Origin: a virus | Direction: 5' to 3' (one strand) | Virus genome (UHGV): UHGV-0139776 | DNA length: 64,000 nucleotides | Shown here: positions 30,117-55,926 of the stretch, piece after piece | Numbering within the stretch: the first letter of the stretch is position 1 | Layout: each line of letters starts with the position of its first letter | Translations under genes and position numbers: made by a program | The notes under the pieces: model-generated | Database searches by the model: none | Seen by the model: the letters and a program-made list of their open reading frames with translations, nothing else | What the model was told of the DNA's origin: nothing

Positions 30117-31310
30117 GTGACCTGGGACGATCACAAGAAGAATTTTGCTCGCCTGGCGCGAGATGGTGGTTACACCATCGCACAGTATGCCGCCGAGTTT
30201 AATCTTAACCCTAATACCGCACGTCGTTATCTCCGTGCCTTCAAAGAAGACACCAGGACAGCGGACAGCCGCAAGCCAAATAAGCCAGTCAGGAAGCCAC
30301 TAAAAAGCATGATCATTGATCACTCTAATGATCAACATTCAGGTGATCACATTGCGGCGGAAATAGCGGAAAAACAAAGAGTTAATGCCGTTGTCAGTGC
30401 CGCAGTAGAGAATGCGAAGCGCCAAAATAAGCGCATAAATGATCGTTCAGATGATCATGACGTGATCACCCGCGCCCACCGGACCTTACGTGATCGCCTG
30501 GAACGCGACACCCTGGATGATGATGGTGAACGCTTTGAATTCGAAGCTGGCGATTACCTGATAGATAACGTTGAAGCGCGGAAGGCCGCGCGCGCTATGT
30601 TGCGTCGGTCCGGGGCCGATGTTCTGGAAACCACTCTTCTTGAAAAGTCTCTTTCTCATCTCCTTATGCTGGAGAACGCCAGGGATACGTGTATTCGCTT
30701 GGTGCAGGAAATGCGCGATCAGCAAAAAGCCGATGATGAAGGTACTCCGCCTGAATACCGTATCGCGAGCATGCTAAACAGCTGTTCCGCGCAGATAAGC
30801 AGCCTGATCAACACCATTTACAGCATCCGGAATAACTATCGAAAAGAAAGCCGGGAGGCGGAAAAGCACGCTTTATCTATGGGGCAAGCTGGCATTGTTA
30901 AGCTGGCATACGAACGAAAGCGTGAAAATAACTGGTCAGTGCTGGAAGCGGCTGAATTCATCGAGGCGCATGGAGGGAAAGTGCCGCCCCTGATGCTGGA
31001 ACAAATCAAAGCCGATCTGCGTGCTCCTAAGACAAATACCGATGATGAGGAAAGGCAAACTGCCGTCGGTGGCCCTTCTCTTGAAGATCTGGACAAAGTT
31101 GCGCGAGAACGGGCCGCCAACCGCCGCGCCGATGCTGCATTGTGGATTGAGCAACGTAGGGAAGAAATCGCCGATATCGTTGATACAGGCGGTTATGGAG
31201 ATGTTGATACTGAAGGTGTATCAAACGAACCATGGCTGGAACAAGACCTGGACGAAGACGAGGAGGAAGACGAAGAAGTTACCCGCAAGCTATACGGGGA
31301 TGATGATTAA
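30117..31310 (+). CDS. pacA: terminase small subunit PacA
   Basis: 397 aa, contains the pac site in its 5' part, acidic C-terminus. Confidence 0.85.
30310..30468. other. pac packaging site
   Basis: four TGATCA hexamers (30310-30349) and three TGATCR hexamers (30440-30468) as in P1 pac. Confidence 0.85.
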
Positions 31311-32794
31311 TGGCCAGAAGTTGCGTAACGGATCCACGTTGGCGCGAGCTGGTGGCGCTATATCGTTATGACTGGATTGCGGCCGCTGATGTTTTGTTCG
31401 GCAAAACACCTACCTGGCAGCAGGATCTGATTATTGAGTCTGTGCAGGAACAGGGTAGCAAGACATCTGTTTCGTCTGGTCACGGTACCGGGAAATCAGA
31501 CATGACTTCTATCATGATCATGTTGTTCATAATCATGTATCCCGGTGCCCGTGCCATTATCGTTGCGAACAAAATTCAGCAGGTAATGACCGGTATATTC
31601 AAGTACATCAAGATAAACTGGGCTACGGCCACCAGCCGTTTTCCATGGCTTGCTGATTATTTTGTTCTGACAGAAACCGCTTTTTATGAAGTTACTGGTA
31701 AAGGTGTATGGACTGTAGTACCGAAGGGCTTTCGTCTGGGAAGTGAAGAAGCTCTCGCAGGTGAACACGCAGATCATCTTCTGTATATTATCGATGAAGC
31801 CTCCGGTGTCAGTGATAGAGCTTTCGGTATCATCACCGGTGCTCTTACCGGACAGGATAACCGCATCTTATTGCTGTCACAGCCTACACGCCCAAGCGGC
31901 TATTTCTACGATACTCACCATAAACTGGCCAAGCGTCCTGGTAACCCTGATGGCGTTTATACGGCGATCACGCTTAACAGTGAGGAATCACCGCTGGTAA
32001 CGCCAGCATTTATCAAAATGAAGCTGGCGGAGTACGGCGGGCGTGATAACCCTATGTACATGATTAAGGTACGCGGCCTATTCCCTAAATCACAGGATGG
32101 CTTCCTTCTTGGACGTGATGAGGTTGAACGTGCAACGCGGCGGAAAGTCAAGATTGCCAAAGGATGGGGCTGGCTTGCATGTGTGGACGTTGCTGGTGGT
32201 ACGGGACGGGATAAGTCCGTTATCAATATCATGATGGTGTCCGGCCAGCGAAATAAACGCCGTGTAATCAACTATCGAATGCTGGAATACACAGACGTTA
32301 CAGAAACGCAGCTTGCCGCCAAAATTTTCGCAGAATGTAATCCTGAGCGATTCCCAAATATCACCATAGCGATAGACGGCGATGGCCTGGGTAAAGCAAC
32401 GGCGGATCTGATGTACGAGTATTATGGTATTACCGTACAGCGTATACGCTGGGGTAAAAAGATGCATAGCCGTGAAGATAAGAGCCTGTACTTTGATAAA
32501 CGTGCTTATGCCAACGTTCAAGCCGCAGAGGCCGTAAAATCTGGTCGTATGAGACTGGATAAGGGTAATGAAACTATTGAGGAAGCGTCGAAAATCCCTG
32601 TAGGGATTAACTCCGCAGGTCAATGGAAAGTGATGAGTAAGGAGGATATGAAGAAAAAACTCAACCTGCACTCACCAGACCATTGGGATACATATTGTTT
32701 CGCTATGCTGGCTGATTATGTTCCCCAGGATGAAGTGCTTAGCGTCGAAGACGAAGCGCAGGTTGATGAAGCTCTGGCATGGCTTAATGAATAA
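31310..32794 (+). CDS. pacB: terminase large subunit PacB
   Basis: 494 aa; Walker A-like SGHGTGKS, Walker [11 protein letters not shown]. Confidence 0.85.
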
Positions 32795-49870: not shown

Positions 49871-50003
49871 AAAGACCTCATAAGCGAATTTTTTACGCTC
49901 CAGGACAAACACTCATTCACAGCCAATACCGACTGACTCGATCCCTTTAGAAGGCACAGGATAATGCAAATCACTTGTTAGCCACGTTTCAAAGATATAC
50001 ATT

Positions 50004-50020
50004 ATTGCTCTAATTAATTT
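50004..50020 (+). promoter_or_regulatory. C1 operator-like site
   Basis: ATTGCTCTAATTAATTT 20 bp upstream of ssb. Confidence 0.6.
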
Positions 50021-50039
50021 ATTTTATTAGGTAAGAAAA

Positions 50040-50528
50040 GTGGCACAACGCGGTGTAAACAAAGTCATCCTGATTGGTACCCTGGGGCAAGACCCGGAGA
50101 TCAGGTATATACCAAATGGCGGCGCAGTCGGAAGACTCAGCATCGCAACGAATGAATCATGGCGCGATAAGCAAACGGGCCAACAGAAAGAGCAAACAGA
50201 ATGGCATAAAGTCGTTTTGTTCGGAAAACTTGCTGAAATTGCGAGTGAGTATTTACGAAAAGGTTCTCAGGTCTACATCGAAGGGAAACTTAAAACCCGT
50301 AAGTGGACTGATGACGCCGGTGTAGAACGTTACACGACGGAAATTATCGTCAGCCAGGGCGGCACCATGCAAATGATCGGCACTCGCCGCGACGATTCAC
50401 AGTCCTCAAATGGCTGGGGGCAGTCAAACCAACCTCAAAACCACCAGCAATACAGCGGTGGCGGCAAACCTCAGAGCAGCGCCAATAACGAACCTCCAAT
50501 GGACTTTGAAGACGATATTCCGTTTTAG
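50040..50528 (+). CDS. ssb: single-stranded DNA-binding protein
   Basis: OB-fold N-terminus [15 protein letters not shown]..., Gly/Gln-rich linker, acidic tail DFEDDIPF. Confidence 0.92.
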
Positions 50529-50730
50529 AGTTTATGAGTAAAAAACGACTGAAAGAAAAGCGGTGGTCCAAACGCCAACAAAAGCACGAACTCGCTAAAA
50601 AACGCCAAAGTTGGCAATGGCACGCGTTTTTAACGAACAGAACACCACGAGATATTGCTTTCGCTGGTGGGAAAACATTCCTAACCCACCTGAAGACGCA
50701 ATACATCAGTTTTTAAGCAGAGAAAAGACT

Positions 50731-51519
50731 ATGACAGCACAAAATACTAAAACCATTCAATACTGCCTACGTAATGGCCAGAGTGTCGAAGTGACCATCA
50801 ATAATGATGGAGTACCTGGCGAAAAGGTTTCTATCTCTGATCTGGCTATCGAAAAAACCATCATGTGCCACCTTGGCTTTACTGAAGAAGTGAGCAAAAA
50901 GCATGGTGTAGCAATCTGGAGCGCAATGGATACTGGTATGCGCAAATTCATTACTGCTCGTACCCCAGGGATGACCATGATGGACCTCATGCAGATTGCG
51001 CCGCTGTTTGAATGTGAGCCTTTAGATGTATTCAGCAATCCAGCTATCTGCCAGCAGTTATATGGTGAGATGAAACTCGCGGTTACCCCCATTGTGCTGC
51101 ATGAAGGATCGCTTGCTGGCGTGTGGAAAGTAGAGCGTATTTCAAGCTACATGCCTTTCCATGTCAACGGCGTAATCACTGGTGAAAATCAACCTGTTTC
51201 CGTTATAAAGTCAGACCTCAAGCGCGCAATTCTTGAAGCAAGTTGTCGAGTTGTCGGCCTGGGCAAACAGTCTTATGTTTCCTTCCCGGCTGGCCCTGAA
51301 GGCCCGGCAGAAATTCTGATTATGGATGCCGATCTGCTATGGCAAATACAGTTTCTGATTGGCAAAAGCATCATCCGCGCTGAAGAACTCGATCAGTACA
51401 TTACCTGCACGATGACGGATGAAGTCAAAAGTGTGGCTATAGCCAATGCCCGGAACCTATGTCGTGCTGCATTAACAGAACTGCAAGAAAACACCACGGA
51501 AGAGGTGGAAAGTGATTAA
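50731..51519 (+). CDS. hypothetical protein
   Basis: 263-aa ORF from ATG 50731; stop overlaps next gene. Confidence 0.5.
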   Translation: MTAQNTKTIQYCLRNGQSVEVTINNDGVPGEKVSISDLAIEKTIMCHLGFTEEVSKKHGVAIWSAMDTGMRKFITARTPGMTMMDLMQIAPLFECEPLDVFSNPAICQQLYGEMKLAVTPIVLHEGSLAGVWKVERISSYMPFHVNGVITGENQPVSVIKSDLKRAILEASCRVVGLGKQSYVSFPAGPEGPAEILIMDADLLWQIQFLIGKSIIRAEELDQYITCTMTDEVKSVAIANARNLCRAALTELQENTTEEVESD

Positions 51520-52606
51520 TCGTATACAGAATGAATCTGCCTGGTTAGCACTGATAGAACGGTATAAAGACAATTGGGAACTGGCAGCAAAAGAGTTGCT
51601 TGATATTGAGTTAACACCTCATCAAGCAAAAATTATTAACGCGATAAAGAACACCGGAGCCAAAATCACTGCCACCACACCACATGGTATTGGGGAAACC
51701 TCTATTGTGGCAGTGATTAGCATCCTGCAAACAATACTGTATTCGTGTTCCCGTACAGTGGTTGTTTCTCCTGCGATTAACGATTGTCGAAAAACAATAA
51801 TTGACTATATGTTCCGTTATTGGGAGCGAGTTACCCAAAAACACCCTTTTCTTGGCAATTATTTCAGAATACACCCTGACAAAGGGTTGGTGCATATCAG
51901 TGAAACATGGGGATGCGTCTATATAACCTATTGTCTGAATAACGAAGAGTCTCTGGCTGGTTTTACTGGACCGCACGATCTTTTCATCGTTATTAACTCG
52001 GCGGAAATCAGCGATCGCGCTCATGCAGTGATAACTGGCAATTTAACCAATTATGACTCGCGCCTGCTGTTGCTGTCGAAACCATCGGAACGCGAGAAAG
52101 GGTACTTTTATGATTCGCATCACCGGTTGGCCCATAGTAAAAACAATCCTGCTGGTTTTTTCACGGCGATAACTCTAAACACAGAGGATTCACCTCTCGT
52201 TTCTGAAGCATATCTTGAATTCAAAGCCAAAGAGTTTGGTGGGCGCAATAGCGATGAATATCGCCGATTGATCTTGGGGAAATTCCCCGGGATTCGGGAG
52301 TTGATGGAAAAGTCATCTGTTCCCCGTAATATGCACTTCACAATGACTGACGGTAGTAAATGGGTAGTGCCTACGATCGTGATCGCCAAACACCATGCGA
52401 AACATCACGCTCAAAAACACAACTCCAGCACATTAGACTGGCTGAAGGCCTATACAATACCGTTATTCTCGGCAAACCATAACGCTATAACTGAATGGGC
52501 TAAACAAATCCCCTGGCAGGATGTGGCTGAAGAGGCATTTGTCGAAAAACCACCAAGAGATATGCACGAGCACTGTTGGCTGACATCAGAAAAGAGTTTC
52601 TCGTGA
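51512..52606 (+). CDS. PacB-paralogous terminase-ATPase-like protein, motifs degenerate
   Basis: about 50% identical to PacB residues 1-300 in this window, but Walker A is HGIGETS (K to E) and Walker B is IVINSAE (DE to NS); nuclease domain absent. Confidence 0.7.
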   Translation: MINRIQNESAWLALIERYKDNWELAAKELLDIELTPHQAKIINAIKNTGAKITATTPHGIGETSIVAVISILQTILYSCSRTVVVSPAINDCRKTIIDYMFRYWERVTQKHPFLGNYFRIHPDKGLVHISETWGCVYITYCLNNEESLAGFTGPHDLFIVINSAEISDRAHAVITGNLTNYDSRLLLLSKPSEREKGYFYDSHHRLAHSKNNPAGFFTAITLNTEDSPLVSEAYLEFKAKEFGGRNSDEYRRLILGKFPGIRELMEKSSVPRNMHFTMTDGSKWVVPTIVIAKHHAKHHAQKHNSSTLDWLKAYTIPLFSANHNAITEWAKQIPWQDVAEEAFVEKPPRDMHEHCWLTSEKSFS

Positions 52607-52637
52607 GGTAAAAATCCCGCCAATTGGCGGGATTTCT

Positions 52638-52949
52638 TCAATATACGATCTGGTCTACATGATCACCAAAATCATCGTCGTCGTCGTCCTCATCGCCACC
52701 ATCTACTGCTGGCCAATCAACAAACCAGCCAGCGTAAAGATGCAGCGTTCGGAGAACATCACTTGCGGGAGCATCAAGGGTGTTAACGAATCCCATATAG
52801 CTATTGGGATTTGCCCCAGCTATGGCTTCAGCGATCATGTCCTCGGTAATGTCACCGGAGATAATGCTTAAACGCCCGGAAACTTCTTCATTATCATCAA
52901 ATTCGATAATGGCATCTCCGCCTAATGGCGCTGCGATTTTAATCTGCAT
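52638..52949 (-). CDS. acidic hypothetical protein
   Basis: 103-aa ORF with poly-Asp tail, last gene of the darA operon. Confidence 0.5.
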   Translation of the reverse strand: MQIKIAAPLGGDAIIEFDDNEEVSGRLSIISGDITEDMIAEAIAGANPNSYMGFVNTLDAPASDVLRTLHLYAGWFVDWPAVDGGDEDDDDDDFGDHVDQIVY

Positions 52950-55926
52950 TATTTAGCTCCTTTGCCACACCTAATAACAGTTCCAGCAATCCGTCACCAT
53001 TCATCAGTGATGCGGCAGCGGCCTCTTTGTCATGATACAACTGAAGAGCCATAGAGAATACTTCCGTTGCTGACGTTTTGGAAATAGTCGGTGATTTCTG
53101 CCGAATTTTCCCGGTGTTACTTACTGAGGCTGGCGGGTATACCTTCGCCATATAAATATTACTCAATCGAGATCTGAAGCACCATTCAGGCTTGCCACGC
53201 CCACCGATATTAACGAAAGATGGCTTATCCCCTTCAACATTGGCCTTCAGGAATGACCGGGCTTTCTCTAACAAACCAGGGTTACTGTACTCAAGATGAT
53301 GACCCAGCTCGTGCCACAGTGCACTTGCATTTTCATCGTTCAAATTGACAGCAACAACACCATTAATATTTGCATATGCCCTTCCCTGGTGGTGAACCAC
53401 CTTTGATAAGGTCGAAATTTTACCGCCGGTCAGGCGATAAATATCAGCAAGTTCCTTGCGCAGGTCTATCCCACCATTCTGTCCAGCGCGGGCTTCTTCC
53501 ACTTCTTCCGTGATAAAAGAGTCGGCCCACTCAAGAGCTTTTTCTTCAGATACGGATGAGTTGGCGATCGCACTGTTCATGGCAGATAACACTTTCTCGT
53601 GGACCGAACCCATACTTTGCTGATTCATTTGCCAGCGTGTCTGCGGGTTATATGAGAATCGCTTAAGTAGTTGGTCAAGATGCTCAAGTTCTTCTTCGCT
53701 GACATACTTTTTAGCCTCACCAATAATGCCGGGGAGAATATTGCCGTTAGGATTAAACGCTCGCGAAAGGAAGAGTTTCAGCGCCCCCATGCCCTCCGAT
53801 GCTTCAATATCACCAATAACACGGTTAACAATGGCCGCACTCTTCGGATTAGCATCCGCCAACGCTCTGGCTACGATTTGCAGTGACGATACGACCTCAC
53901 GCTGCATATCAGTCCTGATCTCATCAATAAACTCTGGCGTTATGCCGTGCTCTTTAAGGATATCCCTGCCTTCCGCCGTTACCCCATCGATATCACCGAC
54001 ATGTTTATTAACCTGACTTTGCAATGCCTTAAATGCCCTCAGAATTCCACGGGCATCATCCGCTTTACTAACGGCCTTCCTGAATGCTGGCAAGAAGTCA
54101 GAGTTAACCTCATTTTGTTGATCGGCCCACTGAATGGAGGCTTCTTTCATCTCGTCCAGAGTCAGATCACCCAACGCGGTATGGTCTGTGAATATGAGCG
54201 ACAACCTCTGAACCATTTCTGCCAATGGTGATGCCGAATGCGCCGCGCTAAGGAATGCTTTCACCCTGGTTGGGCGAATGGAAAACCAGTCAATAGCTGG
54301 TGGCATATCTCCGTTTTTTATCGCCTGCGCTATCTCGTCAAAGCCATCGCGCCCAAGGGAGGATGCGTGATTTAACAAGCCGCGAAGTAACGAATTGCTG
54401 ATACCGAATAATCGGCACCATTTTTTCACGTCGGCAACAGGCATTCGAACAAAATGCGCAAGCACTTGTACAAGCTGTTCATCCTGGGGATCTGTACGGG
54501 AAAGCAGCCTGATCAGATGAATAATGTCTTTGATGCCGGATGCCCGATGTAATAGCAAACTGGTATATGGAGCAACACCATTGTAACTACCGCCGGAAAC
54601 GGACTCGAAAAGACCGCCGGATATCCCTTGCATGCCTTCGTTTTCCAGTTCCTGAGACACCTGGCGAAGGATATCCTGTAACGACACATCACCACCGCCA
54701 AACATATCCCCCAGCGCCTGGCCCTGGTGCTGTAACTCATCATTGATACGTTGAGCCATCAACTTAAAGGCGGTGGCCATACGCTTCGCGCTACGGTTAT
54801 TCGCGACGATGAACAACGCGAGTGCTTTCACTTCCGGGGCCGTTTCGCTGAACATATCCCCCTGAGCAATAACATCGGTAATATGCTGGCCTGACTCCTT
54901 CGATTGCCTTACCAGGTCTACCGCATCTTTCAATGCCGCCAGCGCCTTTTTATCGAGGCTATCCGCTGTCTCAATGCCATCAACAATAGTTGTCACAGCC
55001 TGCTTGTGCGCTTCTCCTGATAAAGCCTGCATCTGGACAAAATCATTGGCTGCCGCATTAAGCGCCGTCAGAACATTACGCATATCCGGATCAGGTTCTT
55101 CTGCAACCATCCTTACCAGGCGCGCATCCTTATATGCCTTGGCAAAGATCGCGTTTTGTATACGGTCAACAAGTTGCCGCGTTGGTCGCCCATCTTCCGT
55201 TACAAGGCCAGCCGCCTGTGTGGCACCAACTTGCGTCATAAATCCGCGAATAAACGCGTCATTACTGCGGCTAAGCAGATCTCCGCTTTCTGACGGGTTA
55301 AAAAGCGCCATCATCGCCGGTGTTATGCTGTCGGCATCAACAAAAGCCTTTTCACTGGCTGCCATTTCCTGAAGATCAGAAATATTTGAGTCCTTGGCAA
55401 ACTGAACGCGGTCAACCTTGGTTAACCGGCGGCGCACCAGTACCGGAGCCGTCATTGATTCAACCTTTTCAGGTCGTATGCCGAATTCGGTCGCATGATC
55501 AATCAGGTACTCACGATACCGATCCGCATTGCCGTCCTGATAGGCTTTGATGATCCCCATGGTCCGTCCATTACCTGACTCAACGGCATTGTCCTCACCA
55601 ATTATCGGCGCACCATGGCTGGATAAACCGGAATCAGTAAGCTGAGCTGGCCGCAAATCTTTGGATATCTGGTTAACCTGAAGAAGGCTGGATGCGCGGG
55701 TCCGGTCGCGCGGCTGAAGTTCCTGGGGATAGTCAGGATTAATTTTCCCATCCAGAGTATTGGATACCAAAAGAGCTGAGGCATCGACGATATCAAACGC
55801 TGTTTTTACCTCGTCTCCCTTCGCTGTCACCACATACGAAACCCGCCCATAATCGGGCAGGTTCTTTAGCAGCTCGATCAGCGTTTCTATGCTGGTGGCC
55901 ATTACCACCTGATCGCTTAAGCTCAT
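52939..55926 (-). CDS. ddrB: DdrB-like large virion protein
   Basis: 995-aa ORF downstream of darA. Confidence 0.65.
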   Translation of the reverse strand: MSLSDQVVMATSIETLIELLKNLPDYGRVSYVVTAKGDEVKTAFDIVDASALLVSNTLDGKINPDYPQELQPRDRTRASSLLQVNQISKDLRPAQLTDSGLSSHGAPIIGEDNAVESGNGRTMGIIKAYQDGNADRYREYLIDHATEFGIRPEKVESMTAPVLVRRRLTKVDRVQFAKDSNISDLQEMAASEKAFVDADSITPAMMALFNPSESGDLLSRSNDAFIRGFMTQVGATQAAGLVTEDGRPTRQLVDRIQNAIFAKAYKDARLVRMVAEEPDPDMRNVLTALNAAANDFVQMQALSGEAHKQAVTTIVDGIETADSLDKKALAALKDAVDLVRQSKESGQHITDVIAQGDMFSETAPEVKALALFIVANNRSAKRMATAFKLMAQRINDELQHQGQALGDMFGGGDVSLQDILRQVSQELENEGMQGISGGLFESVSGGSYNGVAPYTSLLLHRASGIKDIIHLIRLLSRTDPQDEQLVQVLAHFVRMPVADVKKWCRLFGISNSLLRGLLNHASSLGRDGFDEIAQAIKNGDMPPAIDWFSIRPTRVKAFLSAAHSASPLAEMVQRLSLIFTDHTALGDLTLDEMKEASIQWADQQNEVNSDFLPAFRKAVSKADDARGILRAFKALQSQVNKHVGDIDGVTAEGRDILKEHGITPEFIDEIRTDMQREVVSSLQIVARALADANPKSAAIVNRVIGDIEASEGMGALKLFLSRAFNPNGNILPGIIGEAKKYVSEEELEHLDQLLKRFSYNPQTRWQMNQQSMGSVHEKVLSAMNSAIANSSVSEEKALEWADSFITEEVEEARAGQNGGIDLRKELADIYRLTGGKISTLSKVVHHQGRAYANINGVVAVNLNDENASALWHELGHHLEYSNPGLLEKARSFLKANVEGDKPSFVNIGGRGKPEWCFRSRLSNIYMAKVYPPASVSNTGKIRQKSPTISKTSATEVFSMALQLYHDKEAAAASLMNGDGLLELLLGVAKELNNAD

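Follow-up and report, generated by a model that had tools for sequence, protein, structure and literature searches.

We analysed a 64,000-nucleotide (nt) stretch of the virus genome UHGV-0139776, hereafter the window, which represents a P1-like phage-plasmid and whose positions 50000–53500 match several Punavirus records at 96–99% identity. At this locus the genes lie in the order lyz (− strand), ssb, open reading frame 1 (ORF1) and ORF2 (all three on the + strand), followed by the convergent hxr and by ddrB. The GTG start of ORF2 is preceded by GAGGTGG, and the overlap with the ORF1 stop measures 8 nt (GTGATTAA). ORF2 has a G+C content of 44.0% as compared to 48.4% for the window. An earlier note, made by a model from the letters alone, had read the two ORFs as a translationally coupled module whose second gene encodes a catalytically degenerate paralogue of PacB, the terminase large subunit. 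Here we report that ORF2 is very probably a PacB-derived pseudoenzyme, which has kept the ATPase fold while losing the whole ATP-binding and hydrolysis site as well as the nuclease domain, which carries a C-terminal domain of ~95 amino acids (aa) typical of phage replication and recombination modules, and which belongs to an old and maintained family of dead PacB proteins specific to P1-like phage-plasmids.

ORF2 and its active paralogue PacB

BLASTP aligns residues 11–272 of ORF2 with the N-terminal ~262 residues of PacB, with 94 of 266 positions identical (35%), 58% positives and an E value of 5e-55. This paralogy is far beyond chance, and both of the strings that the earlier note had quoted in its favour are present. 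The alignment is ungapped over the two Walker motifs, where ORF2 displays HGIGETS (within TTPHGIGETS) against HGTGKS for Walker A, and IVINSAE (within DLFIVINSAE) against IIDEASG for Walker B. The Walker columns keep the same register in a 120-sequence MAFFT alignment. An AlphaFold model of ORF2 reached a predicted local distance difference test score (pLDDT) of 90.9 and a predicted template modelling score (pTM) of 0.86 with an alignment of 37 rows, which was needed for a usable model, the single sequence giving a pLDDT of 34. In this model the P-loop sits between a strand (51–55) and a helix (62–76), and Walker B ends the strand 157–161. Because the pairwise alignment, the columns of the larger alignment and the placement in the model agree, the motif substitutions are real, and misalignment is excluded as their source. 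The Walker A lysine is found in 111 of 111 active relatives and in none of the 12 members of the dead family described below; likewise, the Walker B glutamate drops from 100% to 0% and the aspartate from 92% to 17%.

The structure prediction that had been proposed as a check points the same way, since the top Foldseek matches of the model are the terminase ATPase domains of Sf6 gp2, P74-26, D6E, HK97 and T4, with the PhiV-1 terminase from the Avs3 complex also among the matches; ORF2 thus has a terminase-type ATPase fold. A hidden Markov model profile of the PacB nuclease domain finds no match in ORF2, and the ~95-aa domain occupies that region instead. The loss of the nuclease had been seen correctly, but it had escaped the earlier note that the ~97 residues found there form a distinct conserved domain. 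The proposal of a dead terminase-like protein also stands, as the loss of the motifs and of the domain predicts that ORF2 can neither hydrolyse ATP nor cut DNA. Lacking both the ATP site and the nuclease, ORF2 is therefore predicted to act by binding alone. Some GenBank records name ORF2 "terminase large subunit", an annotation that is corrected by these results. Pfam, NCBIfam, PADLOC and PDB sequence searches returned no match for ORF1, ORF2 or the C-terminal domain (in PADLOC, none at E≤1 for ORF1 or ORF2).

In contrast to PacB, ORF2 is not located beside a small-subunit or portal gene; pacA-pacB lies ~19 kb away, and ORF2 is preceded by ssb and isaA. The coordinates of all features are collected in Table 1.

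Table 1. Genes and sequence features of the window discussed in the text
Feature	Position	Strand	Remarks
PacA	30117–31310		Adjoins PacB
PacB, functional terminase large subunit	31310–32794	+	Active paralogue of ORF2
C1 repressor operator (Ossb/Op21)	50004–50020	+	Upstream of ssb; 17-mer ATTGCTCTAATTAATTT matches exactly the operator annotated in P1 (NC_005856)
ssb, protein that binds single-stranded DNA	50040–50528	+	First gene of the operon
ORF1, IsaA homologue	50731–51519	+	262 aa; phrog_2326
ORF2, nuclease-less PacB paralogue, predicted ATPase-dead	51512–52606	+	364 aa; GTG start
Degenerate Walker A P-loop of ORF2, residues 55–64 (TTPHGIGETS)	51674–51703	+	Glu62 in place of the invariant Lys
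Degenerate Walker B of ORF2, residues 157–163 (LFIVINS)	51980–52000	+	Ile161-Asn162 in place of Asp-Glu; beta-strand in the model
Retained C-motif region of ORF2, residues 185–192 (LLLLSKPS)	52064–52087	+	Followed by the conserved GYFYDSHH motif, common to PacB
C-terminal domain of ORF2, residues ~268–364	52313–52603	+	Beta-hairpin and three helices; unrelated to the terminase nuclease; model pLDDT 79–89
GC-rich inverted repeat, AAATCCCGCC-AATT-GGCGGGATTT	52612–52635		Between ORF2 and the convergent hxr

A family of dead PacB proteins

Relatives of ORF2 were collected by an exhaustive HMMER search over 1.84 billion representatives, which gave 749 matches; a word-index protein search had returned only 3 relatives. 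The closest matches are 244–268, 362–366 or 438–444 aa long, and all of them are devoid of the Walker A lysine and of the Walker B Asp-Glu, the other matches being enzymes of ~450–580 aa whose motifs are intact, or fragments of these. We define the dead-PacB family by a PacB-like ATPase domain lacking K62, D162 and E163 (PacB numbering) in a protein without nuclease, a definition that includes ORF2, 12 dead representatives (P0001, P0002, P0024, P0026, P0027, P0029, P0030, P0033, P0034, P0061, P0063 and P0082) and also L059. Nine positions that are at least 85% conserved in the 111 active relatives are lost in the 12 dead ones, namely S56, G57, K62, A86, Q91, H153, D162, E163 and S165, with H153 going from 96% to 0%. 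Both the active and the dead set retain Q38, the P-loop glycines, G150, P191, G197 and F199, while the catalytic residues are replaced in the dead family by varied amino acids. A neighbour-joining tree, drawn without bootstrap, unites 11 of these 12 in one clade beside the PacB-like enzymes and places P0061 just outside. Most family members (~260 aa) end a few residues past the GxFP motif that closes the ATPase domain and do not carry the C-terminal domain of ORF2.

All members with readable flanks belong to a P1-like element that has its own full-length pacA-pacB. An intact pacB shares the element with the dead copy in this window and in L012, L014–16, L044–L058 and L103; besides, L059 is on one contig with L092, whose PacB is nearly identical to that of the window, and L105 on one contig with L091. 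The contigs of L011, L013, L101–102 and L107 are too short to read the pacB context. The gene directly before the dead copy encodes DnaB/Ban in L059, and a Ref-like RecA-dependent nuclease or a radical-SAM protein in other members; in the window, the dead copy lies downstream of ssb. ORF2 is hence not a lone decaying copy and is one of a maintained family of ATPase-dead PacB paralogues. The family is previously undescribed and consists of terminase-derived pseudoenzymes, ORF2 having an added domain; no publication dealing with a paralogue of PacB or with terminase decoys came up in literature searches.

Two further observations were made during the survey. Several PacB-like terminases (P0050, P0058 and P0071) harbour inteins inside their Walker A P-loop, at a point after the conserved GHG and before the lysine of GK[ST]. 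In L105 (13797–16121), a P1-like contig with the dead PacB P0030, genes for Hcp (type VI secretion system), Tlde1-domain proteins and a UmuC-like polymerase are found nearby.

The C-terminal domain

The C-terminal domain of ORF2 matches the C terminus of phrog_17928, and 12 positions are invariant in an alignment of its stand-alone and fused homologues. Stand-alone homologues of ~100 aa are P0176, P0145 and gp35 of Cronobacter phage JK004; the domain also forms the C terminus of ORF36 of Xanthomonas phage CP2, which has DUF1351 at its N terminus, and Bordetella phage PHB04 gp107 is a further homologue. The genes around these homologues belong to replication and recombination: in JK004 the domain adjoins the DnaB helicase, in CP2 it is near Erf, an exonuclease and SSB, in PHB04 near RecE and an SMC-like ATPase, and in L017 near SSB, Thy1 and a metallophosphatase. 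In P0045, which is possibly cut by the contig end, a domain of this type is fused to the N-terminal side of a terminase ATPase domain that is likewise dead (GSGTGTTT), an order opposite to that of ORF2. The fusion of the two modules in both orders argues that they work jointly.

Fold searches with the ORF2 model returned matches to the ATPase domain only. A profile of the C-terminal domain gave a single weak match against the PDB, 3ic3 (E 0.067), on which we do not rely; this 101-aa structural-genomics protein is labelled putative pyruvate dehydrogenase, is matched over DGS-W...IA..HA..YA and is possibly a remote relative. In pEA13_2 (L024, 2493–4479) the IS4-like element ISEc60 splits ORF2 after ~259 codons, a natural loss of just the C-terminal domain.

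IsaA and the two-gene pairing

The upstream ORF, given as 263 aa in the earlier note, is 262 aa long and is the known P1 gene isaA. At the DNA level ORF1 is ~95–98% identical to isaA of P1 and SJ46, and IsaA homologues at 44–47% identity occur in other P1-like elements, the IsaA of L012 being 46% identical to ORF1. ORF1 was also considered as a possible paralogue of PacA, which was ruled out (E 1.4).

In order to judge the proposed two-gene module we turned to IMG/VR, where 36 loci hold an ORF2-type gene, in which a dead ATPase is combined with the small domain. These loci form three groups, with 89–100%, 52–53% and 48–50% identity to ORF2, and all those with upstream sequence display an IsaA homologue immediately 5' of the ORF2-type gene, overlapping or abutting it. 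In the two diverged groups the pair is found at another genomic position, where it closes an operon of a cre-like recombinase, two unknown genes, dut, a DUF2829/Tad2-like gene, IsaA and dead PacB. That the two genes stay neighbours at another genomic address speaks for a functional link between IsaA and ORF2. The link is nevertheless not obligatory: of the PLSDB records, 617 have pacB, 336 have isaA and 120 have ORF2, so that in P1-like plasmids IsaA occurs mostly without ORF2 and is far commoner alone, D6-like plasmids with IsaA but without dead PacB also occur, and other family members follow different genes. The proposed two-gene module is thus partly supported.

The ssb-hxr interval is a variable slot

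ORF2 behaves as a precise presence/absence cassette and is carried by ~20% of the pacB-bearing P1-like plasmids in PLSDB. In SJ46, window positions 51520–52609 are precisely missing and the terminator comes directly after isaA; reference P1, RCS47 and Ro157c2 have other DNA at the ORF2 site. In reference P1 (NC_005856; L001, 4022–5735) the similarity to the window breaks off at the isaA stop and starts again at hxr, with unrelated DNA, IS1 and isaB in between. The possibility that P1 isaB is the IS1-severed tail of ORF2 was ruled out by alignment, the two being unrelated. In JL22 (L010, 2263–3375) the slot holds an ompD porin gene and isaA is missing too, while in RCS47 it holds a reverse-oriented gene of 346 aa annotated with a DNA-binding or transposon function. 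Altogether, these comparisons confirm the slot as a cargo hot spot; it corresponds to the variable region RD-2 (IsaA/IS1/IsaB) already known from reference P1 (PMC6906374, PMC9603915). The P1 names "IsaA" and "IsaB" obscure the fact that relatives free of IS1 have a different gene at that site.

SJ46 and Ro157c2 have a DUF2829/Tad2-like gene exactly between the ssb-proximal spacer and isaA (L007, 2227–2904). This gene is missing from the window, where the junction coincides with the start codon of ORF1 (50731–50741), with the consequence that ORF1 starts here with MTAQNTK and not with MENTK. The inverted repeat at 52612–52635, likely a bidirectional terminator, directly follows the isaA stop in elements without ORF2.

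Maintenance and expression of ORF2

Homologues of ORF2 at 37–53% identity have intact reading frames, as do the copies in more than 120 plasmids. Between close ORF2 alleles the ratio of nonsynonymous to synonymous substitution rates (dN/dS) is 0.32–0.59, values that come from only 15–33 differences; those involving L003 and misregistered ORF1 pairs were discarded as indel artefacts. The intact frames and the dN/dS below 1 support the view that ORF2 is maintained and not decaying. Two natural disruptions were encountered, the ISEc60 insertion of pEA13_2 described above and a variant in 813R1 (L003, 4013–5083), whose ORF2 has a length of 356 aa in the annotation and whose matched stretch is 3497 bases long as compared to 3501 in the window, which suggests an indel or frameshift variant.

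No terminator was found on the + strand between ssb and ORF1. Given this, the intact C1 operator upstream of ssb and the hairpin after ORF2, we infer that ssb, ORF1 and ORF2 are likely co-transcribed, repressed in the lysogen and switched on early in lytic growth.

Discussion

What would a binding-only terminase copy be for? Dead paralogues usually regulate their active counterpart, and the reading that we rank first, with a probability of roughly one in three, is that ORF2 is an early-made mimic of PacB gating the initiation of packaging on replicating DNA. ORF2 would be produced early from the C1-controlled ssb operon and would work purely through binding; its PacB-like domain might engage a partner of PacB, for example PacA, pac DNA or PacB itself, while the C-terminal domain might engage the replication and recombination machinery. 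Together, the two domains could gate or tune when and where PacA-PacB starts cutting and packaging replicating DNA. We place this reading first because the family is limited to elements of the PacAB type, because its members recurrently follow ssb, ban or ref-like genes, and because of the neighbours of the C-terminal domain and the usual role of dead paralogues.

Several points weigh against a packaging gate. Reference P1 has no ORF2 and packages normally; therefore ORF2 is not a core packaging factor, and it is an optional accessory. Its presence in only ~20% of pacB-bearing plasmids would equally fit a conflict gene. Since most family members lack the C-terminal domain, a link to replication is not essential to the family, and the position beside replication genes may reflect only insertion at the ends of early operons. 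Finally, a competitor of PacB made early could harm the packaging of the element itself unless finely balanced.

Among the enzymes of tailed phages, terminase large subunits show the highest conservation, and the innate immunity of bacteria has a prime target in them. The main rival of the packaging gate, which we regard as possible though on the whole doubtful, is an anti-defence function, in which an early terminase look-alike would blunt the host sensors of the terminase ATPase domain (Avs1-3, Upx) by occupying the sensor or masking PacB, without offering the ATP or active-site features that activate it. The variable presence of the gene, its early C1-controlled promoter, the proximity of the anti-restriction genes ddrA/ddrB in the window and the PhiV-1 terminase among the fold matches are consistent with such a role, as is the accessory block of two lineages, in which a Tad2-like gene (Thoeris anti-defence 2-like) precedes IsaA and dead PacB in the same operon. 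The Tad2-like gene as an operon neighbour is seen in the SJ46 and D6-like lineages. This is, however, guilt by association, and DUF2829 proteins are not all anti-Thoeris; the slot carries unrelated cargo in other elements (ompD, insertion sequences), and the affinity of the C-terminal domain for replication modules is left unexplained. T4 vs.8, a terminase-ATPase paralogue, fits the EcAvs2 pocket, and its authors propose that it serves anti-defence (bioRxiv 10.64898/2026.04.30.721860). A terminase mimic directed against Avs is not known.

Extended to the whole dead-PacB family, this idea would make it a counter-measure to terminase-sensing immunity, which we consider a little less probable still. 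According to a 2026 preprint, what Avs2 and Avs3 sense is the active site of the terminase together with its ATP, and the terminase ATPase domain alone suffices for EcAvs2 and Upx (bioRxiv 10.64898/2026.04.30.721860). An early pseudo-terminase might keep the shape that is bound by the sensor (Avs1-3, Upx) and shed the activating ATP and active-site features, acting as a silent competitor or as a shield for PacB. If this were true, dead PacB would be the first trigger-mimic anti-Avs protein.

The earlier note had suggested that ORF2 may regulate packaging or interfere with it, possibly with that of competing phages. As a weapon, ORF2 would be a dominant-negative PacB fragment poisoning the packaging enzyme of P1-like elements that share the cell or superinfect it, and sparing that of its own. 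A dead motor domain might do this by titrating a PacA-type small subunit or by capping a PacB ring, the family is limited to elements with PacAB-type packaging, and the gene is accessory and variably present; moreover, the packaging-interference proteins Ppi of Staphylococcus aureus pathogenicity islands (SaPI) and Rpp of phage-inducible chromosomal islands (PICI), which bind small terminase subunits, are analogues in principle. We find this improbable all the same, as the C1-repressed promoter in front of ORF2 in this window would be expected to keep it off in the lysogen, the state in which exclusion is needed, and as ORF2 falls in its own clade, no closer to the PacB of any rival than to its own, with no discrimination of self from non-self evident. 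Least credible of all is a relic without role left by a pacB duplicate, for which the varied replacements at catalytic positions, the only moderately low dN/dS from few differences and the two natural disruptions can be cited, but which is at odds with the intact frames, the strongly conserved non-catalytic motifs, the confident and well-packed model, the preserved ribosome-binding site and overlapping start, and the gain and retention of an extra conserved domain fused in both orders.

The retention of motor-dead, nuclease-less copies beside the real enzyme in a whole group of phage-plasmids means that the terminase fold has been put to a second use, one of binding only. With this family there is a handle on how the initiation of packaging is coordinated with replication in P1-type phages, and on the role of stand-alone terminase-like proteins such as T4 vs.8.

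Comparison with known systems

With PacB, ORF2 shares the ATPase fold, the Q-motif, the P-loop glycines, the C-motif region and GYFYDSHH, but it lacks the Walker A lysine, the Walker B Asp-Glu, the conserved histidine of the LAGEH motif and the RNase-H-like nuclease domain; PacB is essential, while ORF2 is optional and located away from pacA and the portal gene. When compared to the IsaA/IS1/IsaB region of reference P1, ORF1 corresponds to isaA, whereas P1 isaB differs, having no relation to ORF2. SaPI Ppi and PICI Rpp resemble the proposed mode of action of ORF2 in being small accessory proteins that act on terminase by binding and not by catalysis; in contrast, they are satellite-encoded and are not terminase homologues, while ORF2 is a terminase homologue carried by the phage itself. 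T4 vs.8 is a paralogue of the terminase ATPase that stands alone, fits the EcAvs2 pocket and may, as was suggested, have an anti-defence role (bioRxiv 10.64898/2026.04.30.721860). Like ORF2, it duplicates the terminase ATPase domain without a nuclease in a phage that has a real terminase; by its description, however, vs.8 has intact Walker A and B motifs and is specific to the T4 lineage, whereas ORF2, which has lost both motifs, stems from PacB and has an additional C-terminal domain.

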